A program made the translations under genes and the position numbers. Positions 1,171 through 59,957 of a stretch of 64,000 bases of DNA are shown in pieces. Each line of letters starts with the position of its first letter. Positions within the stretch are counted from its first letter, which is position 1. The notes beneath the pieces are model-generated. The model saw only the letters and a program-made list of their open reading frames with translations. It did not search any database and was not told where the DNA came from. Source of the DNA: Candidatus Limnocylindrales bacterium (GTDB taxonomy: Bacteria; Chloroflexota; Limnocylindria; Limnocylindrales; CSP1-4); contig JBCLDE010000001.1 of the NCBI GenBank assembly GCA_038915165.1, positions 6,234 to 70,233 of the forward strand, read 5' to 3'.

Positions 1171-1171
1171 G

Positions 1172-16367: not shown

Positions 16368-19300
16368 GTGACTGGCCCCGCATCAGGTGGGACCGAGCAA
16401 GGCACACGAGCGCCGTCGCGGCTGACCGGGACGCAGGGAGCCGTCGGCGCGGTCCTCGTGGTCCTCGCGCTCGGTCTCGCCCTTCGATTCATCATCGCAT
16501 ACCTGCTGCCAGGGTCTGGATTCGGAGTGGATCTGGGCGCGTTCCGGTTCTGGGCGCACGACCTCGCGACGAACGGCCCAGCGGGCTTCTACGAGCGAGA
16601 CTTCTTCCACGACTACACGCCCGGCTACCTCTACGTCCTGTGGCTGGTCGGCATCGTCGGCAACGTCGTGGGTGGCGTCGGCGACCTCATCAAGGTGCCG
16701 GCGATCCTGGCCGACCTGGCCATCGGCTGGCTGGTCTGGTCGATGATCCTGGAGCTCGGAGGTCGCCGCAGCCTGGCGCTTGGGGCCGCTCTCGTCGCGG
16801 TCGCGAACCCGATCAGCTGGTTCGACAGCGTCGTCTGGGGCCAGGTCGATTCGGTGGGCGTCGTCTTCCTGCTGCTCGGCCTCCGCGAACTCTGGCGCGA
16901 CCGCCCGGAGAGGGCCGCGATCTTCACCGTGATCGCCGCCCTGATCAAGCCGCAACTCGGGATCCTCATCCCGATCCTCGCGCTGGTGACGATCCGCCGC
17001 GCGTTCTGGCCCGTCCGCGATCCGGTGGTCGCGATCCAGCCCGAGTCGACCGCGGTCGCCGGCATCTGGGCCCGCTTCCTCGCCTGGGAGCGCCGGACGG
17101 ACCACCCGTTCCGGATCGTCACGACCGGACTGGTGGCCCTGCTCACGACCGTCCTGCTGTGCCTGCCGTTCGGGCTCTCCGTCCTGGAGTTCAGCCCCGA
17201 GGCGCCGTACCTTAAGTCCGGCCTGATCGCCCAGATCTTCGCCACGGCGTCCGGCTATCCGTATCTGACGGTCAACGCCTTCAACCCTTGGGCCCTCCTT
17301 GCGGGCGACACGGGCTACAGCCTCGCCAACGCCGGACTGTGGGTCTGCGACGGTCCATGGGGGCCCGACAAGTGCGGCTCGGGGGTCGCGTTCCTCGGCA
17401 CCATCCCGGCGGTCCTGGTCGGGAGCCTGCTGATGATGATCGTGACGGTCGTCATCTCGTTCGTGGCCGCGCGGCGCCCGGACCGCCTCACGATCCTCCT
17501 CAGCCTGACCCTGCTCGCACTGGCCTTCTACGTCGTTCCCACCCGCGTCCACGAGCGCTACGCCTACCCGTTCTTCGCGCTTGCGATCATGCTCGCGGTC
17601 ATCGCCTGCCGCTGGCGGATGGCCTATCTCGTCCTGTCAGTGACGATCCTGCTGAACATGTACGCGGTCCTGACAAACCCGTTCTACGCGAACCCGGGAA
17701 TCAGCGACTGGCTTGGCATCGGACCGCTGATCCGGTCTGAACCGGGCGTCGCGGTCATCGCGCTGATCAATGGCGCGGTCTTCCTGTGGGCATTCGCCCA
17801 GCTTCGTGCCGGGGCGCGCAACAGTTTGGCGAAGGGCCTGGCAACCGAGGAGGCGCGCGCACTGGCGGAGGACGAGCCGCTTGCCCATCGCGCCGGCGTT
17901 GTGCGCGACCCCCCACCGCCTTCTCCGGCCGTTCGTGAGGCGACCGCGGCGGCGGCAGACGATCACGGGAGCGCCACGGCTGGATCGACCGGTCCCGCGA
18001 TCACCGCGATCACCGCGGCGCTCCCGACCTGGACGCCGCGCCCCACCTACGCGGAGATCGGTGTCCTCGGCTGGTTCAAGGCACGCCTGCGCGAGGCGCC
18101 CATCCGGCCGGACCGCAGCGCAGCGCTTCGATCCGAACGTCGCGGCCGTCTCGATCGGCTCGACCTATGGCTCCTCGTCGTGCTCGTCGTCGCGGCGATG
18201 TTCCTGCGCACCTTCCGGCTGGCCGAGCCGCACCAGATGCACTTCGACGAGGTCTACCACGCCCGGACTGCGACCGAGTTCCTGCAGGCCTGGCGCTACG
18301 GCCTGTCGCACGACATCTACGAGTGGACCCATCCGCATCTCGCCAAGTACGCGATGGCCGGTGGCCTGGTCCTGTGGGGCCAGGATCAGGCTAAAGCCAC
18401 CAGCGACCTCGGCGTCTCGGTCAAGGCGTCCGTCGTCGAACCGCGCCGGGACGACCCGCTCTCGCCCGGAGGCCGAAGCGGCGAGCGGCTGCACGTCGCT
18501 ACCGGCTCTGAGGTCCGGACCTACGACCTGCGCACGCGGCGGCTCGTCTCGGTCGTGCAGGCTGCGGGAGCGTCTGCGCTGGCGATCGACAAAACCGGCA
18601 ACCGGCTCATCGTCGGGAACGAGGCGGGCCAGATCTCGACCATCGATCTGTCCGTGCTGGGGAGCGCCGGCGTCGATCCGGGCGGCGAGGCGTTCCCGTT
18701 GGCGACCGTCGACCACCCGGTCGCGAACCTGCTGGTGACCGCTGACGGCGCTTCCATCGTGGCGGCCTCAGCCGACCGCCTGTCAGTCGTGGATCTGGCC
18801 ACGGGCGACGTTCGAGGCAGTCTGGCCCTGCCCGGCATCGCCGACCTGGCGCCCGGCGGCAGTGGTTCTGCGCTGGTGGCAAGGGTCGACGAGGCCAGCG
18901 ATCCGGCGGCGCTCGCCAGCACCCTGGCGGAGCTGTTGTCGGGGGACGCGTCCGACTATGAGGCGCGTCTCGCCAAGGGATCGCCGGGCAGCACCGTCGT
19001 CCTCGGCAGCCCTGGGACCGGCGACGCGCGCAAGGCCCTCGACACGGCGCTCGCCGATGGCCGCCTGCCGGGCGTCAGCATCGACGACGTCGCCCGGGTG
19101 GCCGTCGCGACCAGCGAAGGTGTCACGTTCATCGATCCGGCCCGCGTTTCGAAGGTCAGCACCACCACGCTCAGTGGCGGCGCCCACGGCCTGGCGTTCG
19201 TCACCGGCCTCGCCGACCCCAGGCTCTACGTCACGACCGGCGCGGACTCGGATCCCGGGTACCAGGTCATCGCGGTCGGGGGCGACAGCGCCAAGGCCGG

Positions 19301-32654: not shown

Positions 32655-33389
32655 ATGGGCGACCTCGCGGAGCGGATGCGTACCAGACTCCTTCCGGCGA
32701 TCGTGACCGCGCTGGGTGTCGTACTCCTTGCGGGTGGCCTGCTGTCCATCGCCGCGCCGGTGACGGCCGATCCGTTGTCGAGCCCGGCGCCCACCGCCGT
32801 CGCGCTCGTGCCGTCCGAGCGCCCGCGCATCACGCTCCCACCGCCGTCATCCGCGGGACCGGTCGCCAGTCCGTCGATCCCGGCCGACCGTGTCGCGACC
32901 CGCGTCCGGATCTGGGAGCTCGGGATCGACCTGCCGGTCTTGCCGCCGGGCGGCCCGGACGATTACCCGCTGTGTGACGTCGCGCAGTACTTCCGCCACC
33001 CCAGTCTCGGGCAACCGGGGATGGGTCGGGCGACCTATCTGTACGCCCATGCCCGCGATGGGATGTTCGGGCCGATCCTCGAAGCCTCGAAGGTCCAGGA
33101 CGGCAACAAGATGCGCGGGATGGTCGTCGAGGTCTGGACGAGCGACGACCAGCGCTTCCTGTACGAGATCACGGAGGTCCGCCGCCACGTTCCCTTCGAC
33201 GACGTGTGGTTCGACGATCCGATGGCCGCGCCCGAGGAGGAGCTCTGGCTGCAGACCTCGGAAGGCCCCGCGGTCCCGAAGGGCCAGCCACCGAATCCGA
33301 AGCTCCAGGTTGTGGCGATGCCGCTCTCACAGGAGCCCGCTGACCACGCGGACGCCCACCCGGTCGCGAAACCGGTGGACTGCGGCTAG
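32655..33389 (+). CDS. membrane-anchored sortase-like protein with Ser at the expected catalytic Cys position
   Basis: The TM anchor is LLPAIVTALGVVLLAGGLL. The rest follows a sortase-like layout: RIWELGIDLPVLPPG, YLYAHARDGMFGPI (His), GMVVEVWTSDDQRFLYEITEV, and ELWLQTSEGP where sortases have L.TC.P. The call is by pattern only. Confidence 0.4.
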   Translation: MGDLAERMRTRLLPAIVTALGVVLLAGGLLSIAAPVTADPLSSPAPTAVALVPSERPRITLPPPSSAGPVASPSIPADRVATRVRIWELGIDLPVLPPGGPDDYPLCDVAQYFRHPSLGQPGMGRATYLYAHARDGMFGPILEASKVQDGNKMRGMVVEVWTSDDQRFLYEITEVRRHVPFDDVWFDDPMAAPEEELWLQTSEGPAVPKGQPPNPKLQVVAMPLSQEPADHADAHPVAKPVDCG

Positions 33390-34864
33390 GTCCCGCTCAC
33401 GGTCGTGATGGCCGCGGCCGCTGTCGCGGCCGCGTCGAGCAGGCCACCGGGGAACAGACCCAGCACGATCGTCAGCACGGCCGCCGCGGCGAGCCCGCCC
33501 CACATCAACGCGCCGTGCTTCGGCGCCGGCGCATCGCTGGCCGAATCGCGCATGAACATGTAGACGATGACCCGCAGGTAGTAGAACGCGGCGATCGCCG
33601 CATTGAGGACGACGATGACGGCCAGGATCGTCAGCGGGCCCCCGACCTGCACGGCCGCCAGGATGATGTTGGCCTTGGCGAAGAAGCCGGCCGTCGGCGG
33701 TATCCCGGTCAGTGACAACAGGAAGAGTGTCATGAGCACGCCCAACCACGGTTCGCGCCGGCCGAGCCCAGCGAACGTGGTCAGGCCGGAAGTGACGCCG
33801 ACCCGCTTCTGGAGTGCGGCGATGACCGCGAACGCGCCGAGGTTCATGAACGCGTAGGCGACACCGTAGAAGAGCAGCGCCTCGATGCCCGCGGACTGCT
33901 CCGGTGGGCCGGCGGCCCAGGCCGCCAGGCCGACCAGCATGTAGCCGGTATGGGCGATGGAGCTGTAGGCCAGCATCCGCTTGACGTTGTCCTGGGTCAG
34001 GGCGACGAGATTGCCGAGGGTCATCGTCACCGTCGCAAGCACGATCATGACCGGTAGCCAGAACTCGGCCAGCGGCCCCAGCGCCCCCACGAACAGGCGC
34101 AGGATCAGGGCGAAGGCGCCGACCTTGGGCAAGACCGACAGGTAGCCGGTGATGGGCGTCGGCGAGCCCTGGTAGGCGTCTGGCGTCCAGTAATGGAACG
34201 GCACGGCGGCGATCTTGAATGCGACGCCCGTCGTCAGGAAGGCGAGGCCCATCGCGAGGCCGGGCGAGAGCGGCGCCGTACCGGCGACCACCGCGGCCAG
34301 CGCCTGGGCGATGCCGTCGACGCGCGTCGTGCCGGTCAGGCCCCAGACGAAGGCGAGGCCGAACAGGAAGATCGCGGAGCTGAAGGAACCCAGCAGGAAG
34401 TACTTGATCGCGCCCTCGGTCGAATACGAGTCGGTCTTGTGGAAGCCGGCCAACAGGTAGCCGGGCAACACCATCAACTCCAGTCCGAGGAACAGCAGCA
34501 ACAGGTCTGTCGAGCCGGCGATGAGCATCGCGCCGGTCATCGCGAAGACGAGGAGGGCCGCGAACTCGGCCACCGGCAGCCCACGCGGCAGCAGGTAGTC
34601 CGGTCCGAATACGATGGTCATCGCGATGATGACGATGAACAGGACGTCGAGGAACGTCGTCAGCGCGTCGGCTCTGTAGACGCCATCGAACGCCGTCCCG
34701 CTGACCATGATGGTCAGGCCCGCGGTGATGGCCAGGCCGATGAGCGAGGTGCCCACCGCCAGCGTGCTGGAGCCGGGCCGGATCATATCGACGATGAGGA
34801 TCGCGGCTGCCGTGAGGACGCCCGCGATGAGCGGGCTGATGACGACCAGGTCCTGCCAGCTCAA
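33386..34864 (-). CDS. nuoN: NADH-quinone oxidoreductase subunit N (antiporter-like)
   Basis: The 492-aa polytopic protein reads FKIAAVPFHYWTPDAYQGSPTPITGYLSVLPK...MLAYSSIAHTGYML. TTGA overlap with nuoM. Confidence 0.9.
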   Translation of the reverse strand: MSWQDLVVISPLIAGVLTAAAILIVDMIRPGSSTLAVGTSLIGLAITAGLTIMVSGTAFDGVYRADALTTFLDVLFIVIIAMTIVFGPDYLLPRGLPVAEFAALLVFAMTGAMLIAGSTDLLLLFLGLELMVLPGYLLAGFHKTDSYSTEGAIKYFLLGSFSSAIFLFGLAFVWGLTGTTRVDGIAQALAAVVAGTAPLSPGLAMGLAFLTTGVAFKIAAVPFHYWTPDAYQGSPTPITGYLSVLPKVGAFALILRLFVGALGPLAEFWLPVMIVLATVTMTLGNLVALTQDNVKRMLAYSSIAHTGYMLVGLAAWAAGPPEQSAGIEALLFYGVAYAFMNLGAFAVIAALQKRVGVTSGLTTFAGLGRREPWLGVLMTLFLLSLTGIPPTAGFFAKANIILAAVQVGGPLTILAVIVVLNAAIAAFYYLRVIVYMFMRDSASDAPAPKHGALMWGGLAAAAVLTIVLGLFPGGLLDAAATAAAAITTVSGT

Positions 34865-36504
34865 TGTGCGGCCCCGCCTTCCGGCTGGAGCACAGGGCGG
34901 GACGGCTTGAGCAGGACCCAGCCCGTGCGCGCCACGATCCCGGCCAGGAGCAGGACGATCCCGCCGATGACGGCTGCGTCGGGGATCGCGATGGGTGCCG
35001 CCGGTGCGACCGCGTCGAGAGTCTCCGTGACGGTGCCCGAGAACAGGTTCAGGAGCAGGCCCGGCTGGACGCCGAAGATGACGACCAGCGTCGCGAGCGG
35101 GACGAGCGTCAGGATCTCCACAGCGGTCATGTCGGTCAGGCGGTTGCCGAGCCCGGTCAGGAAGTCGGACAGCTCACCGAACACCATCCGCCCGTACATG
35201 TACAGGAGGTAGCCGGCCGCCAGGATCATCACGAACGTCGCCACGGCAGCCGCCCCGGGGTTGGCCTGGAACGTGCCGACGAGGACCAGGAACTCACCGA
35301 CGAAGCCGGACAGGCCGGGCAGGCCGACGGAGGCGAAGACGAAGAACCCGAAGACAGCCGCCCAGACCGGGGTCCGACCGGCGAGGCCACCCATCCTGGC
35401 GATCGTCCGGTCATGCGTGCGTTCGTAGATGACGCCGACCAGCAGGAAGAGGGCGCCGGTGATGAGGCCGTGGTTGATCATCTGGAGGATCGCGCCCTGG
35501 AGGCCCTGCTGGGTGAACACGAAGATGCCCAGCGTCACGAAGCCCATGTGGCTGACCGACGAGTACGCGACCAGCCGTTTGAGGTCTGGCTGGACCAGCG
35601 CCACGATCGCGCCGTAGATGATCGCGATGAGCGACAGCACGATGATGACCGGCGCAAACGTTGCGGCAGCATCGGGATAGAGCGGCAGGGCGAACCGGAT
35701 GAAGCCGTACGCGCCGAGCTTGAGCATGACTGCGGCCAGGATGACCGAGCCTGCCGTGGGGGCTTCCGTGTGGGCATCGGGAAGCCAAGTATGGAACGGG
35801 AACATCGGGACCTTGATCGCGAAGGCCAGGAAGAAGGCCCCGAAGGCGGCCAGTTGAAGGCCGTCGGCGAAGCCGGGTGACGTCGCGTAGGCCCGCAGCA
35901 TCTCGAAGTCGAAGGCACCGATCCATGATCCGGCGTGGTCGGCCTGGTAGGCGTACGCGGTCGCCAGGATCGCGACCAGCATCAGCAGCGACCCGACCAG
36001 CGTGTAGAGCACGAACTTGATCGTGGCGTAGATCCGGTTGGCCCCGCCCCAGATCCCGATGATCAGGTACATCGGGACCAGGACGATCTCCCAGAAGATG
36101 TAGAACAGGAACGTGTCCAGGGCCAGGAAGACGCCGATCATCCCGACCTCCAGCACGAGGAAGGAGATCATGTATTCCTTGATCCGCGTCTGGATCGGCT
36201 TGAAGCTGGCCAGGATCGCGATCGCGGACAGGGTCGTGGTCAGGACCACCAGTGCGACCGAGATACCGTCCGCGCCAAGCTTGTAGCCGATGCCGAAGGC
36301 CGGGATCCACGAGTGGCTCTCGACGTACTGGAAGCCGGGCCGGCCGGGCAGGTAGCCGATGAGCAGGAAGAGCGACGCGATGAGTGCGAGCACGGCAAAG
36401 CCGAGCGCGACCCCCCGCGCCATCGTCGCCGGCAGGATGGCCACGGCCAGTGCGCCGACCAGTGGCAGGAAGGTGATGATCGAGAGGAGCGGCAGGCCGG
36501 TCAT
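34861..36504 (-). CDS. nuoM: NADH-quinone oxidoreductase subunit M (start ATG 36504 or GTG 36510)
   Basis: The product reads FAIKVPMFPFHTWLPDAHTEAPTAGSVILAAVMLKLGAYGFIRF...LVAYSSVSHMGFV. Confidence 0.9.
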   Translation of the reverse strand: MTGLPLLSIITFLPLVGALAVAILPATMARGVALGFAVLALIASLFLLIGYLPGRPGFQYVESHSWIPAFGIGYKLGADGISVALVVLTTTLSAIAILASFKPIQTRIKEYMISFLVLEVGMIGVFLALDTFLFYIFWEIVLVPMYLIIGIWGGANRIYATIKFVLYTLVGSLLMLVAILATAYAYQADHAGSWIGAFDFEMLRAYATSPGFADGLQLAAFGAFFLAFAIKVPMFPFHTWLPDAHTEAPTAGSVILAAVMLKLGAYGFIRFALPLYPDAAATFAPVIIVLSLIAIIYGAIVALVQPDLKRLVAYSSVSHMGFVTLGIFVFTQQGLQGAILQMINHGLITGALFLLVGVIYERTHDRTIARMGGLAGRTPVWAAVFGFFVFASVGLPGLSGFVGEFLVLVGTFQANPGAAAVATFVMILAAGYLLYMYGRMVFGELSDFLTGLGNRLTDMTAVEILTLVPLATLVVIFGVQPGLLLNLFSGTVTETLDAVAPAAPIAIPDAAVIGGIVLLLAGIVARTGWVLLKPSRPVLQPEGGAAH

Positions 36505-36512: not shown

Positions 36513-38467
<1,955 letters not shown>

Positions 38468-38468
<1 letters not shown>

Positions 38469-38797
38469 CACCGGCTCATCGCATCGTACTCGTCGACCAG
38501 CGGCGTCTTCTTGTTGCGGTAGATGGCGATGACGATGGCCAGCCCGACCGTCGCTTCGGCCGCGGCCACGGCCATGACCATGAGCGCGATGACCGAGCCC
38601 TGGGCGGACAACGGCTGCGCGCCGGCGGGAGTGACCCCGAACGCACCGAACGCGACGATGGCGAGGTTGACGCCGTTGAGCATCAGCTCGATGGACATCA
38701 GCATGCTGATCGCGTTGCGCCGGGCCAGGAACCCGAACGATCCGATGGAGAACAGGAGGCTGGCCAGGATGAGGTAGGCGTCGAGGGAGTCGCTCAC
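38468..38797 (-). CDS. nuoK: NADH-quinone oxidoreductase subunit K
   Basis: The 109-aa product reads [37 protein letters not shown]. The GTG start overlaps the nuoJ stop (GTGA). Confidence 0.9.
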
Positions 38798-39387
38798 GAC
38801 GGCCCACCTGGTTCGCGCTTGGCCAGGAAGACGCCGCCGACGACCGCGGCCAGGAGCAGCACGCTGACAACCTCGAACGGCAGGACGAAGTCGCTGAACA
38901 GCACGCTCGACATGGCGTCCGTCGCCAGGCGGACCCGCTCCGGCAGCTCGCCCCAGTCCGTGGCGGCGATGGCCAGGGCGACGACGACGGCGATGACGGT
39001 GGAGGCGATCGCGGCCGGCACAGCCTGAGTCTGGAAGACCAGCCGGCTCGGCGCGTCCTTGGTCTGGGTCAGCATGATCGCGAACAGGATGAGGACGCTG
39101 ATCGCGCCGATGTAGATGATGACCTGGGCGGCCGCCAGGAGCGGCGCACCGATCAGGACGTAGATGCCGGCCAGGGCACCGAAGCAGACGATCATGGCCA
39201 GGCCGCAGCGGATGATGTCGCGCATCGTCACGACGAGCAGGCCGGCCCCGATCATGACCGCGGCGAGGAGCCAGAACAGGGCGTCCGCCCAGTCCTGGCC
39301 GAGGAAGACCAGCATGATCGCCGCGACGCCCATGACCAGGCCGACGACGGCGAGCGCCAGGATGATCGGGATCGATCGCTGCAGCAC
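38794..39387 (-). CDS. nuoJ: NADH-quinone oxidoreductase subunit J (start GTG 39387; ATG 39444 alternative would overlap the upstream gene)
   Basis: The product reads [58 protein letters not shown]. Confidence 0.8.
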
Positions 39388-39397: not shown

Positions 39398-41980
39398 CTA
39401 CTCGGGATGGATCGGTGCGATGGCGGCTCCATGCCCGTTGCCATTGGCGGGGACGCCCCCGATGGTCGGCGGGAGCATGGGCAGCATCCGCGTCGGGTCG
39501 ATGATGCGTCCTTCCGCGGCCGCTGTGGACGCCCAATCGCGCTCGCGCCGGATGTAGGTGACTTCAGTCTCGCGGTCGATCGCCGCGATGGCCATCAGAT
39601 CGATCATCGGGTTCGCGCGGCTCGTGTCGGCGAGCTCGATGTCCGGACCATGGCGCAGTGCGTCGTATGGGCAGGCGTCCACGCAGATACCGCACAGGAT
39701 ACAGCGGCTCTCGTCGACCTCGAACTTCTGGAGGATGCGCGGCTTGAGCATCAGGGCGCCGGTCGGGCAGGTCTCGGCGCACCGTCCGCACGAGACGCAC
39801 GGGGTGTCGTTGAGGCTCATGTCCAGCGGCGTCGTGACGAGCGTGTCGAAGCCGATCCGCATGAAGTCGTAACAGGCCGCCCCGACGACCTCGGCGCACA
39901 CGGTCGCGCAGCGGCCGCAGTCGATGCAGCGTGACGGCTCGCGCAGGATGAAGGCGTGCGAATCGTCCCGGATGTAGTCGTGGTTGGTGCCGGTGAAGCG
40001 GTTCTCGGTGACGCTCCGGTAGCCGGCCCCGGCGTTGTGCTGCGGTTCGAGGGTCTGGAGCGTGGTCCCGTACTCGATCCCAAGGCGACGCAGGTCGCAG
40101 AAGCCGATCGCCTCGCAGGTGCACTGCAGGCAGCGGGTCGACTCGGCGACCGCTTCCTCGCGGGTATATGGCAGTTCGTACTCGATAAAGCTGTTTCTGC
40201 GTTCCTCCGCCTCCAGCACCTTCATCCGGTAGCGCGGTTCCTTGGCCTCCATGGTGAACGGTACGATGGACAGGAACTCGGGCTGCGGCTCGGCCAGTGT
40301 CTGGCGGGTCCGGATGGCGCTCAGGTCGAGGCCCTTCATGTGGGCGTCGACAGCGTACGCCGCGCGGCGGCCCTCGGCGCAGGCCTGCACGACGGTCGCG
40401 GACCCGATCCGCACGTCGCCGGCCCCGAACACGCCCGGGCGGCCGGTCTCGAAGGTCACCGCGTCCGCCCTGAGCCGGTGCAGTATCGTCTTCTCCGGTC
40501 CCTCGTTGCCGGGCTGTCCCAGCCAGTCGAGCTCCGGCCCCTGGCCGATGGCCAGCAGGACACGGTCGCATGGGATGATGAATTCGGTGCCAGGGGCCGG
40601 TTCGGGCCGGCGGCGGCCGGACGCATCCGGTGCACCCAGGACCATCCGGATGAACTCGACGCCCGTGACGTTGCGGGCTTCGTCGGCGATGACACGGACC
40701 GGACCGGCCTGGAAGATGGCGGTGACGCCCTCCTCGATCGCCTCGTGGACCTCGTTGGAAGCCGGCATGTCCTTCATGTCGCGGCGATAGACCAGCGTTA
40801 CTGCCTTGGCGCCCTGGCGGACGGAGATCCGCGAGCAGTCCATGGAGGTGAACCCACCACCGATGACCACGACCCGCTTGCCGGCGTGGTCCGGGTAGGG
40901 CAGGCCGAGGGTCGCCGTGCGCAGGTACTCCAGGCCCTCGATACATTCGGGCGCGTCGTCGTCCGGGATGCCCAGCTTGTTCGTGTCGTAGCAGCCGATC
41001 GCAATGAGGACGGAATCGAAGCCCTGGAAGGTCAGGTCATCCAGCGTGAAGTCGCGGCCGAAGCCGGTATTGCAGACGATCTTGCCGCCGAGACGCGTGA
41101 TCGATTCGTACTCCGCTTCGAGGACTTCGACCTTCGGCAGGCGGTATTGCGGGATGCCGTACCGGAGCATGCCGCCCGGCGCCGGGTCGCGCTCGAAGAC
41201 CGTCACATCGTGGCCGGCCAGGAGCAGGTAGAACGCGGCGCTCATGCCGGCCGGCCCCGAGCCGATGATCGCGGCTCGTCGTCCCGAGGGTGCCTGGCGC
41301 TCGAACGGCAGTGGTGGGTCCACCCCGTCGTCGAGCATCGACTTCAGGACCTGGTCGCCGGCGTAGCGGTGGCTGTCGCGGATGGCGATCGCCTCGTCGA
41401 CCTCGTCGCGTCGGCAGTGATCCTCACACGGCGCCGGGCAGACCCGCCCGAGGATGCTCGGGAACGGGATCGTCCGCTTGAAGATCCGCGCCGACTCGCG
41501 CCAATCGGCCTGTGCGTTGGCCTTCAGGAAGCCCGGGATGTCGATGGAGCTGGGGCACTTGTTCTGGCAGGGCGGCAGGCAATAGGCGTTGTGGTCGGAG
41601 AAGATCAGCTCCAGGTTCGTCCGGCGCAGGCGGCGCACCTCTTCGGTCTGGGTCTGGACCTTCATCTCCGGCGCGCACACGCGCGCGCACGAGATCGGCG
41701 GGTGCTCCTCGCCCTCGACCTCGACGACACACATCCGGCAGGCCCCGAAGCCGGGCAGCTTCGGCTCGTAGCACAGGGTCGGGATCTCGATGCCGTTGGC
41801 GCGGCACACCTCGAGGATCGTCTGGCCCTCGAACCCTTCGAGGATGCGGCCGTCGACCTCGATGCGGATGCGCGGGGTCGACTGCGGGCGCTGCGGCGCC
41901 TGAGCCTCCAGCAGTCGCTCGGCGAGCGACTGCTGGTCCAGTGCGGGGCGGCTTTGGGGGCGCGTGATCAGGTCGGCCAT
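39398..41980 (-). CDS. 860-aa Fe-S flavoprotein fusion: NuoG-type N-terminal [2Fe-2S] domain, GltD/NfnB-type NAD(P)H-FAD module, NuoG-type [4Fe-4S] region, NuoI-like 2x[4Fe-4S] tail
   Basis: The 2Fe-2S region is RIRIEVDGRILEGFEGQTILEVCRANGIEIPTLCYEPKLPGFGACRMCVVEV. The GltD part reads CPSSIDIPGFL...GRVCPAPCEDHC, AAIIGSGPAGMS and VVVIGGGFTSMD. The 4Fe-4S region is SRCIDCGRCATVCAEV...CVSCGRCAETCPTGAL. The tail CILCGICVDACPYDALRHGPDIELAD resembles the NuoI C-terminus. Confidence 0.8.
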   Translation of the reverse strand: MADLITRPQSRPALDQQSLAERLLEAQAPQRPQSTPRIRIEVDGRILEGFEGQTILEVCRANGIEIPTLCYEPKLPGFGACRMCVVEVEGEEHPPISCARVCAPEMKVQTQTEEVRRLRRTNLELIFSDHNAYCLPPCQNKCPSSIDIPGFLKANAQADWRESARIFKRTIPFPSILGRVCPAPCEDHCRRDEVDEAIAIRDSHRYAGDQVLKSMLDDGVDPPLPFERQAPSGRRAAIIGSGPAGMSAAFYLLLAGHDVTVFERDPAPGGMLRYGIPQYRLPKVEVLEAEYESITRLGGKIVCNTGFGRDFTLDDLTFQGFDSVLIAIGCYDTNKLGIPDDDAPECIEGLEYLRTATLGLPYPDHAGKRVVVIGGGFTSMDCSRISVRQGAKAVTLVYRRDMKDMPASNEVHEAIEEGVTAIFQAGPVRVIADEARNVTGVEFIRMVLGAPDASGRRRPEPAPGTEFIIPCDRVLLAIGQGPELDWLGQPGNEGPEKTILHRLRADAVTFETGRPGVFGAGDVRIGSATVVQACAEGRRAAYAVDAHMKGLDLSAIRTRQTLAEPQPEFLSIVPFTMEAKEPRYRMKVLEAEERRNSFIEYELPYTREEAVAESTRCLQCTCEAIGFCDLRRLGIEYGTTLQTLEPQHNAGAGYRSVTENRFTGTNHDYIRDDSHAFILREPSRCIDCGRCATVCAEVVGAACYDFMRIGFDTLVTTPLDMSLNDTPCVSCGRCAETCPTGALMLKPRILQKFEVDESRCILCGICVDACPYDALRHGPDIELADTSRANPMIDLMAIAAIDRETEVTYIRRERDWASTAAAEGRIIDPTRMLPMLPPTIGGVPANGNGHGAAIAPIHPE

Positions 41981-42016
41981 GGTCGCCTTAGTGCCGCGCC
42001 GACATCGGCCACAAAC

Positions 42017-43852
42017 TCACCGGGATCCTCCTGCCACACCGGGGGTGCCGGCCAGCTGCGCGTCGCGGTACGACTCCTTGTAGAGCCGGCCGTCACTCGA
42101 GATCTCCTGGAGCTCGAACCGCTCCATCGTAATGGCGTCGAACGGGCAGCGCTTGACGCACAGCGCGCAGCGGATGCAGCTCTCCTCGTCGATGATCATC
42201 GCCCCGCCGTTGTCCCAGCCGTAGGCCTCCTCGAGCTCGGGCAGCGGCCCCTCGGATTTGAGCTGGTTGATGTCGACCAGGTGGATGACGCCGACGGGGC
42301 AGACATCGGCACAGGCGCCGCACAGGACGCAGCGGAACGGGTCGAACCAGATGTTGTAATTGCACATGAGACAGCGGATCGACTCGGCGACGGCGGCATT
42401 GGCGTCGTAGCCAAGCTCAACCGGCGTGTTGAAGTTGACGACCGGTTCGGTCGATGGCATCCGCGCGGTCACCGGCAGCATCGGGATGTGCTGGCGCGGC
42501 AGGACGTCGTAGAACTCGGGCATGTCGTGGCGCCACGAGCTGGTGATCTTGACGTTGGCGCTGACCGAGACGTCGGTCCGGCCGGCCAGGTAGCGATCGA
42601 TGGCGTAGGCGCACTTCTTGCCGTGGCCGGCCGCCTCGACCAGGGTCGTCGGGCCGGTCACGAAGTCGCCGCAGGCGAAGACGCCCCGGACGTTGGAGGC
42701 GTACGTGGCGGGGTCCACCTTGACCCGGCCGCGGTTGATCTGGAACTTCGCCTCGATCGGCAGGAAGGTCAGGTCGGCCGCCTGTGAGACGGCGGGGATG
42801 ACGGTCTTGGCCGGGATGACGAACTCGGAGCCCGCGATCGGCACCGGGGAACGGCGGCCGGACGCGTCCGGCTCACCCAACCGGTTACGGATGAACTTGA
42901 CGCCGCTGACCTTGCCGTCCTCGCCCAGGATCTCGATCGGGCTGGCCAGGAACTCCAGGCGCACGCCTTCACGCTCGGTCTCGCCCAGCTCCTCTTCGTC
43001 GACGACGAGCTCCGAGCGGGTGCGCCGGTAGACGATCGAGACGCGCTCGGCGCCGTGGCGCAGGCTGGTGCGCGAGCAGTCCATCGCGGTGTAGCCGCCA
43101 CCGATGACCACGATGTCGGTCCCGACCTCCAGGGGCTGGCCGAGGTTGGCCTGCTTCATGAAATCGACGCCGTACTGGACACCCTCGAGATCGGCGCCGG
43201 GGATGTCCAGGGCCACCGCGTCCATGGCGCCGGCGGTGATCGCGATCGCGTCGAAGTCCCGCTGGAGTTGCTCGAACGTGATGTCCACCCCGATCGTCGT
43301 GTCATACACGAACCGGACGCCCAGCCGCTCGATCAGGCGCACGTCGTTCTCGATCGCCTCACGCGGCAGGCGGAAGGCCGGCACGCCGATGAGCATCGTC
43401 CCGCCACCGTACGGCAGGCTGTCGAAGACGGTGCACTGGTAGCCCGCGGTGGCGAGCTCGCGGGCGACGCTCAGACCGGCCGGTCCGGCACCGACGATCG
43501 CCACGCGCTCGTCGCGCGGCGTGATCTGGGGCATCACGTCCGGGATGCCCGACGCCTCATGCCATTCGACGAGGAAGCGCTTCATCGCCCGGATCGCCAG
43601 TGGCCGATCGATGTCGCCACGACGACAGGCCCGCTCGCACGGCGCCGAGCAGACATACGAACACATCGCGGCGACCGGGTTCGTCTCGCGCGCCAGGATG
43701 TAGCCCTCCTCGAACCGGCCTTCGGCGGCAAGGTTGAGGTAGCCACGGCAATTCGTCCCGACCGGGCACGCTTCCTGGCACTCGATGTTGCACTGGAGCC
43801 AGGAGGCGTCGACGGGCTGGACGAGGAATTCCTGGGGCTGCTCGATGGCCAA
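42017..43852 (-). CDS. 611-aa GltD/NfnB-type NAD(P)H oxidoreductase with C-terminal 2x[4Fe-4S] ferredoxin domain (TTG start)
   Basis: The product reads CQEACPVGTNC...CSYVCSAPCERACRR, VAIVGAGPAGLS, IVVIGGGYTAMD and FACGDF. The C-terminus carries CVLCGACADVCPVGVI and CIRCALCVKRCPFDAI. Confidence 0.8.
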   Translation of the reverse strand: MAIEQPQEFLVQPVDASWLQCNIECQEACPVGTNCRGYLNLAAEGRFEEGYILARETNPVAAMCSYVCSAPCERACRRGDIDRPLAIRAMKRFLVEWHEASGIPDVMPQITPRDERVAIVGAGPAGLSVARELATAGYQCTVFDSLPYGGGTMLIGVPAFRLPREAIENDVRLIERLGVRFVYDTTIGVDITFEQLQRDFDAIAITAGAMDAVALDIPGADLEGVQYGVDFMKQANLGQPLEVGTDIVVIGGGYTAMDCSRTSLRHGAERVSIVYRRTRSELVVDEEELGETEREGVRLEFLASPIEILGEDGKVSGVKFIRNRLGEPDASGRRSPVPIAGSEFVIPAKTVIPAVSQAADLTFLPIEAKFQINRGRVKVDPATYASNVRGVFACGDFVTGPTTLVEAAGHGKKCAYAIDRYLAGRTDVSVSANVKITSSWRHDMPEFYDVLPRQHIPMLPVTARMPSTEPVVNFNTPVELGYDANAAVAESIRCLMCNYNIWFDPFRCVLCGACADVCPVGVIHLVDINQLKSEGPLPELEEAYGWDNGGAMIIDEESCIRCALCVKRCPFDAITMERFELQEISSDGRLYKESYRDAQLAGTPGVAGGSR

Positions 43853-43909: not shown

Positions 43910-43945
43910 GCGGCCGATGCGGCCGATGCGGCCGATGCGCCGAAT
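43910..43945. repeat. 9-bp tandem repeat gcggccgat x3 perfect + 1 degenerate, in the divergent promoter region between the nuo-like operon and sufB
   Basis: Read directly from the sequence: units at 43910, 43919 and 43928, and a degenerate one at 43937. The array lies 58-93 nt upstream of the TTG start at 43852. Confidence 0.9.
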
Positions 43946-56423: not shown

Positions 56424-59400
56424 ATGGCGACCGTGAGCAATTCCATGACTGGTTCGAACGAGGCCCGCGACGCGGTCCGCGCCGTGCCGATTCCGATCCA
56501 GGGGATTGGCGCGCGCCTCGTCGCCAACATGACCCAGAGCCTCACCGTCCCCACCGCAACCTCGTTCCGCGACATGCCGGTCGATGTCATGGTTGCGCTG
56601 CGGCGCCAACTCAACGCGGCCTTGGCCCCGTTCCGCCTGTCGTTCACCCACCTGATCGCGTATGCCATCGCCCAGGCGGGAGCAGTCCACCCGACGCTCG
56701 CTGCCCACTTCGTGGAGATCGACGGGCGGCCGCATCGGGTCGACGCGAGCGCGATCAATCTCGGGCTGGCCGTGGACGTCCGGACCCGCGACGGTCAGCC
56801 ATTTCTGGTCGTCCCTGTGGTCCGGGGTGCCGACGAGCTCGACTTCGCGGCCTTCGTGGCCGCCTACGACGATCTGGTGGGGCGGGCAAGAGACAGCCGC
56901 CTCTCGGCCGACGACCTCGTGGGCGCCGGCATCACGCTCACCAACCCGGGGACGGTGGGCACGACCGCGTCCATCCCTCGCCTGATGCCGGGCCAGGGCG
57001 CGATCGTCGCCACCGGTGCGATCCACAAGGTCGCCGGCGGGAGCGTGATGACGGTCAGCAGCACCTACGACCATCGGATCATCCAGGGTGCCGAATCGGG
57101 CCGCTTCCTGGCCACGGTGGAAGAACTGCTCGGAGGCGCGGACGACTTCTACGGCTACGTCGCGGATTGCCTGGAGATCCCGCGGTCGGTGGTCTCAGTG
57201 ACGACCACGACGGTCGCGCCCGCGACCGTCGGCGTGGCGTCTCCCGCCGCGACCAGCGGCCTGGCCGAAATCGCCGCCGGTGTGGCCCTCGTCCACTCCT
57301 ATCGCCAATTCGGCCACCGGGCCGCCGCTCTCGACCCTCTCGGCAGCACCCCGCCCGGCGAGCCGGCCCTGGAACCGGAGGCCTGGGGCCTCACTCCGGA
57401 GGAGCTGGCGTGTGTCCCGGCCGACCTGCTGCGTGTCGACCTGCCGGGAGCCAACCTGGCGGATGTCCTGCCGGAGCTGCGTCGCACCTACTGCGGAACC
57501 ATCGCCTACGAGATCGAGCACATCAACAGCCACGACGAGCGGACGTGGCTGCGGAAGACGATCGAGACGGGAACGCATCGGGTCCCCCTTACCGCGGACG
57601 ACAAGCGGAAACTTCTCACCCGGCTGACGGCCGTGGAGGCCTTCGAGCACTTTCTCCAGCGTGCGTACCTGGGCCAGAAGCGGTTCTCGATCGAGGGCCT
57701 CGATGTCCTCGTCCCGATGCTGCACCAGATCATCGAGCTGGTCGGACGGGCCGGCGCCAGGACGGTCAAGCTCGGAATGGCCCATCGGGGTCGCCTGAAC
57801 GTCCTCGTCCAGGTGGTGGGCGTCCCCGACGCCGTGATCCTCGACGAGTTCGAGCGCAGCCACTCAACGGCCGAGGCCGACCTCCCGCCCGAGGGTGAGA
57901 CGAGCGACGTCAAGTACCACCGCGGCGCGGACGGCGTCCATCAGACCGCGAGTGGCCCGATCCTGGTGACGCTCTCGTCCAACCCGAGCCACCTCGAGGC
58001 AGTCGACCCCGTGGTCGAGGGCCGGGCACGCGCCGAGCAAAGCGATCGCAAGGGACCTACGGTGAGCCGGGACGTCCGCCTCGCGGTGCCCGTGCTGATC
58101 CATGGAGACGCCGGGTTTGCTGCGCAGGGCGTGGTCGCCGAGACGTTTAACCTCGCGCGTCTCGCCGGCTACACGACCGGCGGGACGACCCACCTCATCG
58201 CCGACAATCAGCTCGGCTTCACGGTCGAGCCGAGTGACGGCCGCTCGACCGACTACGCCAGTGATCTTGCCAAGGGCTTCGACGTGCCGATCGTCCACGT
58301 CAACGCCGACGATCCGGAGGCCTGCCTGGCGGCGGTAGAGCTCGCCGTCGCCTACCGCGAACGGTTTCATGGCGACTTCGTCATCCACGTCGTGGGCTAC
58401 CGTCGCCACGGCCACAACGAGGAGGACGAGCCGGCCTATACACAACCGCTGATGTACGCTCGGGTCGCCGAGCACCCGACGGTCCGCGAGCTCTACCTGC
58501 GGCGCCTGGTCGAGGAGGGCACCCTCGAGCTCAGCGCCGGAGAGGCGATGCTCAGTGCTGCGGAGGCACGCCTGGCGGAGATCCAGGAGTCGGTGGCGAG
58601 CAGGGTGACGGACGGCGAGCTGGAGGCCGTCGCGGAACCTGGGGCGACCGAGCCCCGGCCGGCGGCGAATCTGGTCGGTCCGCGACGCAGGACCCGCGGC
58701 TCGACGGAGGTTCCCGCAACGGCGGTCCGCGCAAGCCGCCTGCGAACCATCAACGACGAGCTCCTCCGCTGGCCCGAGGACTTCACCGTTCATCCCAAGT
58801 TGATCCGCCAGCTCGACCGGCGGCGCGCGGCGCTCGGCCCGGACGGCAGGATCCTGTGGGCGCAGGCGGAAGCCCTCGCGCTGGGGTCACTCCTGCTCGA
58901 CGGCACGCCGATTCGCCTGACCGGCCAGGACACCGAACGAGGGACGTTCAGCCAGCGCCATCTCGTGCTCCACGATGCCGGGGACGGGCGGCAGTTCACG
59001 CCGATCCAGCATCTGTCCGGCGCTCGGGCCTCATTCGAGCTGCACAACAGCCCCCTCTCGGAGCTGGCCTGCCTCGGGTTCGAGTACGGCTATGCCGTGG
59101 AGGCGCCAGAGACCCTCGTCCTCTGGGAGGCGCAGTACGGGGACTTTGCCAACGGCGGCGAGGTCGTGATCGACCAGTTCATCATCGCGGGCCTAGCGAA
59201 GTGGGGCGAGACCTCTCGGCTGACCCTCCTGCTACCGCACGGCTACGAGGGCCAAGGACCGGAGCACTCGAGCGCGCGTCTTGAGCGCTACCTGTCCCTA
59301 GGAGCAGAGGACAACATTCGGGTCGCGAACTGCACGACGCCCGCCCAGTACTTTCACCTGCTGCGCGACCAGGGCCTCCGCCCGATCGTCCGACCGCTGG

Positions 59401-59957
59401 TGCTGATGACGCCCAAGAGCCTGCTGAGGCTTCCGGCCGCGACCTCCAGCGTCGACGAGTTGACCGCCGGCCGGTTCGAGGCCGTCCTCGACGATCCGGA
59501 CCGCGCGGCATCACGCAGCGACGTCCGCCGGCTTGTGCTGTGCAGCGGCCGTCTCTACTACGACCTGCTGCTCTCGCCGATGCGCGCAGAGGCACACGAC
59601 GTGGCCATCGGTCGAGTCGAGCTTCTCTATCCGTTTCCCGGCGAGGAGGTGCGGCGGCTGGTCGCCCGCTACCCGTCCCTCGAGACGGTGGTCTGGGCCC
59701 AGGAGGAGCCGCGCAACATGGGTGCCCGCAAGTTCGTGCTGCCCAAGCTTCTCGAACTTGTCCCCGGGAACGTCCCGATCGTCGACGTCTCGCGACCCGA
59801 GCGATCGAGCCCGGCCGAGGGGTACCACGCCGCGCACCGGACCCAGCAGCAATCGATCGTCGAGGAGGCATTCGGAGAGCTGTCCCTCCGGTCGCCGGCC
59901 CGCGGCCACGGGGGTCGCGGCCGTGCACGGACGTCCCGAAAGGCATCGGTGGCATGA
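56424..59957 (+). CDS. kgd: Kgd/OdhA-type 2-oxoglutarate dehydrogenase: E2 acyltransferase catalytic domain fused to E1o
   Basis: The N-terminal ~230 aa read LTVPTATSFRDMPV...LTNPGTVGTTASIPRLMPGQGAIVATG...SSTYDHRIIQGAESGRFL (E2 catalytic core). E1o motifs follow: RFSIEGLD, MAHRGRLNVL, GDVKYH-like SDVKYHRG, HGDAGFAAQGVV, HNEEDEP, FEYGY and [15 protein letters not shown]. Confidence 0.9.
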   Translation: MATVSNSMTGSNEARDAVRAVPIPIQGIGARLVANMTQSLTVPTATSFRDMPVDVMVALRRQLNAALAPFRLSFTHLIAYAIAQAGAVHPTLAAHFVEIDGRPHRVDASAINLGLAVDVRTRDGQPFLVVPVVRGADELDFAAFVAAYDDLVGRARDSRLSADDLVGAGITLTNPGTVGTTASIPRLMPGQGAIVATGAIHKVAGGSVMTVSSTYDHRIIQGAESGRFLATVEELLGGADDFYGYVADCLEIPRSVVSVTTTTVAPATVGVASPAATSGLAEIAAGVALVHSYRQFGHRAAALDPLGSTPPGEPALEPEAWGLTPEELACVPADLLRVDLPGANLADVLPELRRTYCGTIAYEIEHINSHDERTWLRKTIETGTHRVPLTADDKRKLLTRLTAVEAFEHFLQRAYLGQKRFSIEGLDVLVPMLHQIIELVGRAGARTVKLGMAHRGRLNVLVQVVGVPDAVILDEFERSHSTAEADLPPEGETSDVKYHRGADGVHQTASGPILVTLSSNPSHLEAVDPVVEGRARAEQSDRKGPTVSRDVRLAVPVLIHGDAGFAAQGVVAETFNLARLAGYTTGGTTHLIADNQLGFTVEPSDGRSTDYASDLAKGFDVPIVHVNADDPEACLAAVELAVAYRERFHGDFVIHVVGYRRHGHNEEDEPAYTQPLMYARVAEHPTVRELYLRRLVEEGTLELSAGEAMLSAAEARLAEIQESVASRVTDGELEAVAEPGATEPRPAANLVGPRRRTRGSTEVPATAVRASRLRTINDELLRWPEDFTVHPKLIRQLDRRRAALGPDGRILWAQAEALALGSLLLDGTPIRLTGQDTERGTFSQRHLVLHDAGDGRQFTPIQHLSGARASFELHNSPLSELACLGFEYGYAVEAPETLVLWEAQYGDFANGGEVVIDQFIIAGLAKWGETSRLTLLLPHGYEGQGPEHSSARLERYLSLGAEDNIRVANCTTPAQYFHLLRDQGLRPIVRPLVLMTPKSLLRLPAATSSVDELTAGRFEAVLDDPDRAASRSDVRRLVLCSGRLYYDLLLSPMRAEAHDVAIGRVELLYPFPGEEVRRLVARYPSLETVVWAQEEPRNMGARKFVLPKLLELVPGNVPIVDVSRPERSSPAEGYHAAHRTQQQSIVEEAFGELSLRSPARGHGGRGRARTSRKASVA

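Follow-up and report, generated by a model that had tools for sequence, protein, structure and literature searches.

A NuoG-like Fe-S flavoprotein ending in half of NuoI: candidate subunit of a variant complex I in Limnocylindria and Thermoleophilia

The large subunits NfnA and StnC of the Bfu-type transhydrogenases NfnABC and StnABC consist of an N-terminal [2Fe-2S] domain, a GltD/NfnB-like module (residues 102-565 of StnC, with two [4Fe-4S] clusters), clusters of the NuoG type and an inactive formate dehydrogenase (Fdh)-like domain (PMC10482914, PMC11829005). Electrons from NADPH are passed in these proteins from flavin adenine dinucleotide (FAD) through clusters A7, A6, A3, A2 and A1 to a NuoF-like subunit, and a branch A2-A4-A5 into the Fdh-like domain is a dead end (PMC10482914, PMC11829005). 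We have analyzed a gene for a related protein in a 64,000-nucleotide stretch of contig JBCLDE010000001.1 from a Candidatus Limnocylindrales bacterium (Chloroflexota). The whole stretch, which has a guanine plus cytosine content of 68.6%, is referred to below as the window. The gene, called the target here, is an open reading frame (ORF) of 860 amino acids with an ATG start, and its coordinates and those of its domains and neighbours are given in Table 1. We consider it probable that its product belongs to a variant of the proton-pumping NAD(P)H:quinone oxidoreductase (complex I) in Limnocylindria (Chloroflexota) and Thermoleophilia (Actinomycetota), where it would combine NuoG with half of NuoI in one subunit.

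An NfnA/StnC-type body with a NuoI-like tail

In a sequence search of the PDB, residues 38-768 of the target aligned end to end with residues 4-697 of NfnA from Caldicellulosiruptor saccharolyticus (9bov_A, E = 3e-155). StnC of Sporomusa ovata (8oh5_C) also aligned end to end, with an E value of 2e-133, and NfnA of Thermococcus sibiricus (9n5u_A) was the third solved large subunit to be matched. The same three structures headed a Foldseek search with an AlphaFold2 (AF2) model of the target, followed by NfnI-L, GltD and dihydropyrimidine dehydrogenase (DPD); the template modelling scores, normalised to target length, were 0.75-0.79 for NfnI-L and GltD. The N-terminal NuoG-like part split by a GltD module, which a sequence-only reading of the window had presented as a chimera, is real, but the design is already known: it is the NfnA/StnC (BfuA) architecture, for which there are solved structures. 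What is new is the C-terminus, where the inactive Fdh-like domain that NfnA and StnC carry is swapped for the C-terminal half of NuoI. The target ends 92 residues past the end of the 9bov_A alignment (768 of 860), whereas NfnA and StnC run on for ~450 residues.

Much of that earlier description withstood domain-by-domain comparison with hidden Markov models (Pfam, NCBIfam). The extent and length of the gene were given correctly, the strand (minus) having been omitted, and the domains follow one another in the order described. The quoted motifs were found at residues 66-88 (NuoG-like, IPTLCYEPKLPGFGACRMCVVEV), 123-134 (LELIFSDHNAYC), 683-743 (the NuoG-like block SRCIDCGRCATVCAEV...CVSCGRCAETCPTGAL) and 760-785 (the NuoI-like tail, CILCGICVDACPYDALRHGPDIELAD). 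Both the Pfam scan and the PDB sequence search agree that the molybdopterin-like part of NuoG is absent from the target, and nuoJ does start 10 nt downstream, with its GTG at 39387 and the TAG stop of the target at 39398-39400. The terminal segments, compared by Pfam, NCBIfam, PDB and Foldseek searches, did not prove to be generic ferredoxin domains; the N-terminus and residues 678-743 form an Fe-S module of the HydA/HoxU/NuoG type, with GltD inserted at the His/Cys cluster. The return to a NuoG-like fold was rightly noticed, but it begins earlier than had been seen, at C617-x2-C620-x-C622-x5-C628. This block seems to complete, as its second half, the His/Cys cluster motif begun by H130 and C134, and on the alignment its cysteines would take part in ligating that cluster. 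The match to the NuoG family itself is partial: TIGR01973 scored 93.5 bits against a curated cutoff of 470, and its best stretch covered profile positions 1-96 of 606.

The GltD module scored well above the Pfam cutoffs, with Fer4_20 at residues 134-213 (65.2 bits vs 25.8) and Pyr_redox_2 at residues 236-537 (96.4 vs 26.1). Its two [4Fe-4S] sites comprise C138, C142, C181, C185 and C189 plus H204; the FAD site is G240-x-G242-P-x-G245, and the NAD(P)H site is made up of G374-G-G376 and Y398-R-R400. H204 (nt 41369-41371, minus strand) is the equivalent of K170 of StnC, a Lys that ligates the FAD-proximal cluster and is strictly conserved in StnC (PMC10482914). The His is invariant in 79 sequences from both phyla and could itself serve as a cluster ligand. 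Further on, the ferredoxin-like domain carries motif A (C685/688/691/695), motif B (C728/731/734/738) and an extra invariant C703, and residues 678-743 are predicted to hold two [4Fe-4S] clusters. Canonical NuoG (Nqo3) has lost the second cluster of this domain, which the target, by contrast, keeps.

Motif C, CxxCxxCxxxCP (C760-C770), comes 20 residues after motif B and is followed by ~90 more residues; the last Pfam Fer4 match spans residues 754-776. When the tail was searched alone, its five best families were all NuoI, with scores of 42-57 bits that lie below the cutoffs, and TIGR01971 was matched at positions 71-116 of 121. Against the PDB, the best single-stretch matches were genuine NuoI/TYKY chains, the alignments reaching 15-25 residues past the Cys motif; polyferredoxins outscored these chains only through summed repeats. 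The identification of the tail as NuoI thus holds in so far as its affinity, by families and by structures, is specific to NuoI, but only the C-terminal half is present, corresponding to positions about 71-116 of 121.

The target has 7918 relatives in the databases. The best 120 of these, labelled Chloroflexota or Candidatus Limnocylindrales, are 81-98% identical to it and 852-891 amino acids long, except for one entry of 1075 amino acids. This entry (P0034, on a 1.57-Mb contig) also carries the NuoJ domain PF00499, which may represent an extra fusion, or else a lost stop or gene-call read-through. All cluster cysteines are invariant in 79 sequences from two phyla. The ratio of nonsynonymous to synonymous substitution rates (dN/dS) of the target is 0.18 in comparison with the close contexts L004 and L005, and 0.25 with L006. 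In the I(C) segment, as we call the NuoI-like part of the tail, the proportion of nonsynonymous differences (pN) is 0.006 and that of synonymous differences (pS) 0.125; pN is low in the GltD module as well. The target gene is intact and under purifying selection, and the 7918 relatives, the invariant cysteines and the dN/dS of about 0.18 exclude chance or an assembly artefact. An AF2 model of the full protein from 30 close homologues was unusable, with a mean predicted local distance difference test (pLDDT) value of 33. With the 79 sequences from two phyla the mean rose to 64.6, and the [2Fe-2S] and GltD parts (residues ~33-560) were modelled well. Neither model was used for conclusions about cluster geometry or the fold of I(C).

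NuoI on two polypeptides and the operon that encodes them

A lone ferredoxin-type motif is unable to form the usual two-cluster fold, and a partner motif was therefore sought. A candidate is present in the protein of 225 amino acids encoded after nuoH and resembling NuoE. Its residues 12-75 correspond to TIGR01971 positions 1-63 and are matched by nine NuoI models; NuoE models match the protein only at residues ~118-187. Its opening, "..LTLRRFFEPKVTVMYPE..HKFRGRLQLL..C56ETCFQCAQAC66P", is equivalent to the N-terminal segment of NuoI together with the first Cys motif, and we therefore write the protein as I(N)::E and the target as G'::GltD::I(C). When I(N) from contig L061 of a sister metagenome-assembled genome (MAG) was joined to I(C) of the window, TIGR01971 was aligned over positions 1-116 of 121 in one stretch, at 94.6 bits (E = 3e-27; curated cutoff 113.05), compared with 47.6 bits for I(N) and 42.1 bits for I(C) taken separately. 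The eight best families of the joined halves were all NuoI. A profile of paired halves from 12 loci of both lineages, searched against the PDB, matched >35 distinct solved NuoI/TYKY sequences. In the best of these matches (9f5x_G, E = 5e-30), profile positions 8-128 were aligned with residues 84-210 in one stretch, and the sole gap, of 6 residues, fell exactly at the join, in the inter-motif loop. Possession of two CxxCxxCxxxCP motifs in one chain is a feature of NuoI; the target has one of them, and the N-terminal segment (..YPE...RFRG..) and the first motif are found on I(N)::E. By these alignments NuoI is split between two polypeptides, with I(N) on the NuoE-like protein and I(C) on the target.

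The gene order points the same way. On megabase contigs of relatives the gene lies inside nuoA-B-C-D-H-"E"-F-[target]-J-K-L-M-N. A NuoH query over species-representative genomes yielded 80 loci, nearly all labelled Limnocylindrales/Limnocylindria, Chloroflexota or Chloroflexia, and tblastn mapping of these loci gave the same order wherever the contig was long enough (about 60 Limnocylindria species genomes). The NuoI slot between nuoH and nuoJ is kept: in all loci of sufficient length, I(N) comes right after nuoH and I(C) right before nuoJ. Within the operons of these 80 species-representative loci, neither nuoG nor nuoI was found as a separate gene. The subunits of two relatives (L001 and L002) exceed the curated complex I cutoffs for NuoB (218.5 vs 142.7), NuoD (NF004739, 424.3 vs 360) and NuoH (NF004741, 330.3 vs 305), and for their J, K, L, M and N there is support from Pfam or tblastn. 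The order A-B-C-D-H-[I(N)::E]-F-[G'::GltD::I(C)]-J..N can thus be read as the 11-subunit order A-B-C-D-H-I-J..N with E-F-G' nested in nuoI.

A search of diverse representatives showed that the distant relatives of the target are mostly 1000-1300 amino acids long and of the NfnA/StnC type. Among the shorter ones, P0258 (816 amino acids, 43% identical) has the same tail as the target; its family of ~825-residue proteins is labelled Thermoleophilia or Actinobacteria and is found in the same nuo operon order as in Limnocylindria. P0258 and its family alone share the architecture. The idea that the representatives of ~800-850 amino acids have this short-tail architecture was rejected for 7 of the 10 sequences fetched, which end in "...NN[IV]DHCARL" inside an Fdh-type domain; P0350 and P0344 end differently again, and the Cys-rich tail of P0382 is of another kind. 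The relatives with the "...NN[IV]DHCARL" ending, among them P0249, P0277, P0286, P0318, P0342 and P0349 (~810-850 amino acids), probably represent formate dehydrogenase-type subunits with GltD and selenocysteine, the gene calls having ended at the selenocysteine codon. All 13 subunits of the operon are homologous across the two phyla, with 32-54% identity, and the spacing of the G'-to-I(C) junction is identical, which speaks for a single origin.

It might still be supposed that the target is a subunit of a soluble NfnA/StnC-like transhydrogenase, with a generic ferredoxin motif in place of the Fdh-like domain, and that its nuo neighbourhood and NuoI-like tail are incidental. Its nearest solved relatives are indeed the soluble NfnABC and StnABC, the tail alone scores far under the NuoI cutoffs, and polyferredoxins do well against it by way of their summed repeats. 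We nevertheless judge this explanation very unlikely, since the gene keeps a fixed place between nuoF and nuoJ in about 60 species as well as in a second phylum, in operons with no other nuoG or nuoI. Moreover, the profile coverage of the tail is exactly complementary to that of I(N), the joined halves align end to end with NuoI, the alignments continue past the Cys motif for 15-25 residues of NuoI-specific sequence, and the lone CxxCxxCxxxCP motif requires a partner.

In the lineage of the window the operon is interrupted. Four NCBI assemblies with proteins 93-98% identical to the target share the window order of divergent sufB, X611, target, and nuoJ onward (contexts L004-L007; X611 is described below). 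In the sister MAG, which is from the same project, nuoB-C-D-H-I(N)E-F are located on the separate contig L061. Directly after the nuoF stop of this contig, 141 nt (L061 5927-6067) are 90% identical to window 41849-41990 by blastn. This remnant consists of the first ~44 codons of the target and 10 nt upstream of them; beyond it similarity ends, and the frame opened by that start codon runs into a stop. The presence of a remnant of the target after nuoF means that the split arrangement was derived from the unsplit one: the operon of this lineage broke between nuoF and the target, and its nuoA-F are placed at another locus.

One part of the sequence-only reading has to be corrected. There the target was taken for a complete NuoG-flavoprotein-NuoI fusion, with nuoH skipped, in a NuoH-less complex with NuoJ-N only. 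Within the 64-kb window the observations are compatible with this, as nuoH, nuoA-D, nuoE/F and a separate nuoI were all sought and none was found there, the only nuo genes being the target and nuoJ-N, and the tail is NuoI-like. However, nuoH is not skipped by the fusion: relatives have nuoH before [I(N)::E]-F-[target], and nuoA-D and nuoH share the operon in all unsplit relatives. The related MAG has nuoB-C-D-H-I(N)E-F plus the stub of the target on its other contig. The tail, besides, spans NuoI positions about 71-116 only and has a single Cys motif, the complement being on I(N)::E. The full operons of the relatives and the L061 half with its stub rule out a "JKLMN-only" complex in the window, and we see next to no likelihood in a NuoH-less enzyme of this kind.

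Predicted function of the complex

In canonical complex I, as exemplified by the Thermus enzyme, electrons follow the chain FMN-N3-N1b-N4-N5-N6a-N6b-N2, where FMN is flavin mononucleotide. In the explanation that we favour, the inter-motif loop of nuoI, as a gene of an 11-subunit operon, would have received a three-gene cassette of the Nfn/Stn type, whose end genes would each have become fused in frame to one half of nuoI. I(N) and I(C) would re-form the two-cluster fold of NuoI (N6a/N6b) across two chains, and thereby tether the input module to NuoB, NuoD and NuoH. NADH would be oxidised at the FMN of NuoF and NADPH at the FAD of GltD; the two electron streams would merge in the clusters of G' (A3/N5 or A2/A4) and then pass, reversibly, through the split NuoI and N2 to quinone. 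Electrons might leave G' at the His/Cys cluster (A3 = N5), as in canonical complex I. Alternatively, they might leave by the A2-A4 branch, where A5 is replaced in sequence by the motif of I(C), so that the "dead-end" branch of NfnA would become a working outlet. This proposed path draws on the published NfnA/StnC pathways (PMC11829005, PMC10482914) as well as on the canonical complex I chain.

A dual feed of complex I, with NADH at NuoF and NADPH at GltD, is likely on the motifs present. Among all the sampled sequences from Limnocylindria there is no variation in the FAD motif, in the Rossmann motif GGGFTSMD, in Y-R-R or in any Cys of the two GltD clusters. Of 63 Thermoleophilia homologues, about 8 show GDG for GGG, a degenerate form of the NAD(P)H Rossmann motif, and have lost Y-R-R. 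These degenerate motifs could also be taken to mean that the GltD module is a structural vestige, a scaffold in place of the C-terminal domain of NuoG that turns over no NAD(P)H, in what would then be a plain NADH:quinone oxidoreductase. NfnA and StnC themselves bear an inactive Fdh-like vestige, and in the target family His replaces the Lys ligand conserved in StnC. Set against this are the invariance of the sites in Limnocylindria just listed, the low pN of the module, and H204, which is itself invariant and a possible ligand; a vestigial role is in our view unlikely.

The partner subunits differ between the two lineages. In Thermoleophilia the protein encoded after nuoH (253 amino acids; L090 7311-8072) comprises I(N) and a complete NuoE with its [2Fe-2S] cysteines present (NF005722, 146 bits vs 141). 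The Thermoleophilia F subunit (636 amino acids) matches HydB/NfnB/StnB end to end at 792-771 bits, compared with 388-371 bits for canonical NuoF. The F subunit of Limnocylindria is shorter (431 amino acids), and here too the NfnB/HydB cores score higher (310-282 bits) than every canonical NuoF (<=262 bits); it consists of the core only, the N- and C-terminal extra domains having been lost. The NuoE part in Limnocylindria (L001 8029-8706; L061 3919-4599) is restricted to the helical N-domain (Pfam positions 2-64 of 145) and lacks the thioredoxin-like [2Fe-2S] (N1a/C1) domain; in 76 of the 80 NuoH loci there is no Cys after residue 90 of I(N)::E. From this comparison the Limnocylindria form looks like a reduced version of the Thermoleophilia design.

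These differences bear on a further explanation, in which the bifurcation of the Nfn/Stn enzymes would have been kept and NADH, NADPH and possibly ferredoxin would be coupled to quinone reduction and proton pumping, with NADPH being made, for example, by way of an exergonic quinone branch or the proton-motive force. The full Bfu-type B subunit (792-771 bits) and the complete NuoE with [2Fe-2S] cysteines kept by the Thermoleophilia operons are components of the published B1-FMN-C1 bifurcation site (PMC11829005), and membrane-bound "Nuo-Bfu" enzymes have been predicted earlier (PMC9304861). In Limnocylindria, on the other hand, the missing [2Fe-2S] domain of the NuoE-like protein in 76 of 80 loci and the lost extra domains of NuoF leave the published site incomplete, and the sequences analysed here lend no support to ferredoxin binding. 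Bifurcation would be conceivable for Thermoleophilia; in Limnocylindria, which have neither the cluster domain of NuoE nor the extra domains of the B subunit, it is unlikely, and as a general account of the complex we give it very little credence.

A broader version of the favoured explanation holds that a bifurcating Nfn/Stn cassette was captured by an 11-subunit complex I, by way of insertion into nuoI, as an N-module independent of canonical NuoEFG, and that the enzyme couples the NADH, NADPH and quinone pools (possibly also ferredoxin in Thermoleophilia) to proton translocation with a NuoI re-assembled from two polypeptides. We regard this as possible but doubtful. If true, the captured-cassette enzyme could make NADPH by reverse or bifurcated electron flow and would be a transhydrogenase linked to the proton-motive force and a respiratory complex in one.

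Several points weigh against the assignment of the target to a variant complex I with two nicotinamide inputs. The joined halves of NuoI stay below the curated TIGR01971 cutoff. Residues 621-815 have pLDDT <50 in AF2, so that the cluster ligation and the re-assembly of NuoI are predictions from sequence. Specificity for NADPH over NADH would follow from the homology of the Y-R-R motif only, and the degenerate motifs of some Thermoleophilia suggest that the NADPH site has decayed or is dispensable in some lineages. The search covered the operons, so that a stand-alone nuoI or nuoG, or a second canonical nuo operon, may exist elsewhere in these genomes. The L061 contig with nuoB-F and the window are from related MAGs and not necessarily from the same genome. 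Lastly, the complex is predicted from its genes, and the physiological electron flow through it might run in either direction.

Surroundings of the gene and comparison with known systems

Upstream of the target in the window is X611, a GltD-like Fe-S flavoprotein. It is conserved, and in 4 of 4 other contexts examined it heads an operon of the order X611-cytochrome b-cytochrome b(C)-Rieske-cytochrome c (L088 8001-13008, L089 8001-13008, L092 7001-12464 and L093 7001-12578; the last gene encodes a cytochrome c/cupredoxin). X611 overlaps the start of cytochrome b in these operons, and in one of them the X611 homologue is 92% identical to X611 of the window. As X611 heads bc operons elsewhere, the window combines the first gene of a bc-type operon with the rear part of a nuo operon; no bc genes were found in the window. 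A reciprocal exchange between nuo and Rieske-cytochrome b operons was considered and rejected, since the genes after nuoF on L061 encode ferredoxin, IscA-like, DUF59-like and ATP-grasp proteins, without cytochrome b or Rieske protein, and no bc genes are present in the window. The C-terminus of X611 was also considered as a second NuoI-like tail, which was not supported: FwdF and [FeFe]-hydrogenase ferredoxin models outrank NuoI, and no NuoI-specific extension was aligned. An NAD(P)H-type flavoprotein on a bc-type complex recalls the anammox Rieske/cytochrome b complexes, for which NAD(P)H formation has been proposed (PMC12954380). In the X611-sufB intergenic region (~440 bp) the 9-mer GCATCGGCC (minus-strand reading) occurs three times in tandem, at window 43912-43938.

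Table 1. Coordinates of the target, its segments and adjacent genes in the window
Feature	Positions	Strand	Basis
Whole gene, G'::GltD::I(C) subunit	39398..41980	-	ORF; PDB hits 9bov_A, 8oh5_C, 9n5u_A; same top in Foldseek; 7918 homologues
N-terminal leader, residues 1-36, low-complexity	41873..41980	-	AF2 pLDDT <50
[2Fe-2S] domain, residues 37-112, N1b / A1 type; invariant C70, C81, C84, C98	41645..41872	-	Pfam Fer2_4, E 5e-19
His/Cys [4Fe-4S] motif, first half (N5 / A3 type), residues 119-135; H130 and C134 invariant	41576..41626	-	Pfam NADH-G_4Fe-4S_3, profile positions 1-17 of 40 only
GltD/NfnB-like inserted module, residues 136-560	40301..41575	-	Fer4_20; Pyr_redox_2; AF2 pLDDT 80-96; Foldseek; motif conservation
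His/Cys motif, putative second half, residues 612-640, C617-x2-C620-x-C622-x5-C628-DLRRLG	40061..40147	-	Alignment to the CLECGC...C block of NfnA/StnC
HydA/NuoG-type ferredoxin-like domain, residues 678-743	39752..39949	-	Pfam Fer4_Nqo3; TIGR02512 FeFe_hydrog_A at 678-748
NuoI C-terminal half I(C), residues 746-815; motif C (C760/763/766/770-P), NuoI-specific segment YDALRHGPDIELAD...	39536..39745	-	TIGR01971 best family
Variable C-terminal extension, residues 816-860 and stop	39398..39535	-	Low conservation; highest pN of the segments; pLDDT <50 at 824-826, 830-860
nuoJ, GTG start	38794..39387	-	Pfam Oxidored_q3; NCBIfam NuoJ
nuoK	38468-38797	-	ORFs; tblastn with L001 subunits; gene calls in near-identical L004, L006
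nuoL	about 36513-38468	-	ORFs; tblastn with L001 subunits; gene calls in L004, L006
nuoM	about 34861-36504	-	ORFs; tblastn with L001 subunits; gene calls in L004, L006
nuoN	33386-34864	-	ORFs; tblastn with L001 subunits; gene calls in L004, L006
X611, 611-aa GltD-like Fe-S flavoprotein with C-terminal 2x[4Fe-4S] domain, 36 nt upstream of the target	42017..43852	-	Pfam, NCBIfam

Other genes of the window are of more general interest. The genes jag/khpB, yidC, dnaA and dnaN at window 196-7177 indicate the neighbourhood of the chromosomal replication origin at the start of the window; the dnaA ORF (676 amino acids) has an N-terminal extension of about 220 residues. An ORF of 1834 amino acids (window 16293-21797, plus strand) has protein O-mannosyltransferase domains (PMT, PMT_4TMC) only in its C-terminal third, and its neighbour encodes a TMEM260-like glycosyltransferase (window 13346-14863, plus strand). 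In a protein of 1177 amino acids (window 56424-59957, plus strand) a 2-oxoacid acyltransferase (E2) catalytic domain lies ahead of 2-oxoglutarate dehydrogenase E1. The fusion corresponds to the OdhA/Kgd type of Actinobacteria and is found here in a Chloroflexota genome. Aconitase, an SdhA-like flavoprotein and thyX are also encoded in the window.

Complex I is believed to have arisen when an 11-subunit core recruited an NADH-oxidising module. In the operons described here this recruitment seems to have involved a module of the Nfn/Stn (Bfu) type, and there is a visible scar, with three input genes within nuoI and the halves of nuoI fused to the first and last genes of the cassette. If this is correct, it would represent a second, independent acquisition of an N-module in which the point of insertion is preserved. 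NuoI would be a naturally split Fe-S subunit that re-forms across two chains, and thus a case of tolerance of the two-cluster ferredoxin fold to fission. A built-in NADPH site on complex I would, furthermore, connect the quinone pool and the proton-motive force directly with the nicotinamide pools of both anabolism and catabolism. Both carrier lineages are represented here by many environmental MAGs, and Thermoleophilia with full partners and Limnocylindria with reduced ones would form a natural series bearing on the role of N1a/C1 and the extra B-subunit domains. At present the homologues carry annotations such as "FAD-dependent oxidoreductase" and "formate dehydrogenase major subunit", so that NuoG and NuoI will probably be reported as missing from these genomes by automated pipelines.

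We found no description of a GltD-bearing NuoG fused to half of NuoI, of a NuoI on two polypeptides, of nuoE-F-G nested in nuoI or of a NuoE without its [2Fe-2S] domain in the searchable literature, the scope of which leaves out subscription journals. Two published proposals come close. "Nuo-Bfu" complexes are predicted from complex I-like operons with a bifurcating BfuABC-type NADH module in mid-operon (Schut et al. 2022, PMC9304861). They were reported from Deferribacteres, Proteobacteria, Planctomycetes and Nitrospirae, with 14-subunit A-N operons (PMC9304861). The idea fits the Thermoleophilia version of the operon; none of the words GltD, NuoI, Actinobacteria, Thermoleophilia and Conexibacter occurs in the text of that paper (PMC9304861), where Chloroflexi are named four times, in connection with other Bfu types such as Mbh-, Por- and Fdh-Bfu. 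In Mbx-like operons a gltD-related flavoprotein is said to replace NuoI (Degli Esposti 2015, PMC4758237), which is a precedent for a complex I-like enzyme with a GltD-type NAD(P)H module attached where NuoI would be. The Mbx-like complex, however, is hydrogenase-related and its NuoI is substituted, whereas in the present system NuoI is kept but split, with GltD in a NuoG-like subunit of a predicted quinone-reducing enzyme that has NuoE and NuoF.

Compared with NfnA and StnC, the target has the same N-terminal [2Fe-2S] domain, the same FAD and NADPH module at the His/Cys cluster and the same two-cluster ferredoxin-like domain, and its F subunit is closest to NfnB/StnB. Two features that define NfnA and StnC are absent from the target: the ~450-residue inactive Fdh-like domain (cluster A5, tetramerisation), in place of which it has half of NuoI, and the Lys ligand, K170 of StnC being an invariant His in the target family. 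The target gene lies inside a nuo operon. The bifurcating core of NfnABC/StnABC, which pairs a long B subunit bearing additional Fe-S domains with a [2Fe-2S]-containing C subunit, is found in Thermoleophilia and is absent from Limnocylindria. With canonical NuoG (Nqo3) the target shares the N-terminal Fe-S module and the gene position between nuoF and nuoJ, and with canonical NuoI (Nqo9/TYKY) its tail plus I(N) aligns over the whole core. The system differs from canonical complex I in having no molybdopterin-like NuoG domain, in the inserted GltD, in a NuoI divided and fused to NuoE and G', and in the position of nuoH before nuoE. One family model, PRK12814 (NF009454, "putative NADPH-dependent glutamate synthase small subunit"), spans the [2Fe-2S], GltD and Fe-S parts and has no NuoI-like tail; residues 38-697 of the target match its positions 4-630 of 657 (E = 9e-158), at 526.6 bits below the curated cutoff of 916. 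By curated cutoffs the target therefore belongs to none of the NuoG, NuoI and PRK12814 families, yet its sequence argues that it is descended from, and works like, members of these families and of NfnA/StnC.

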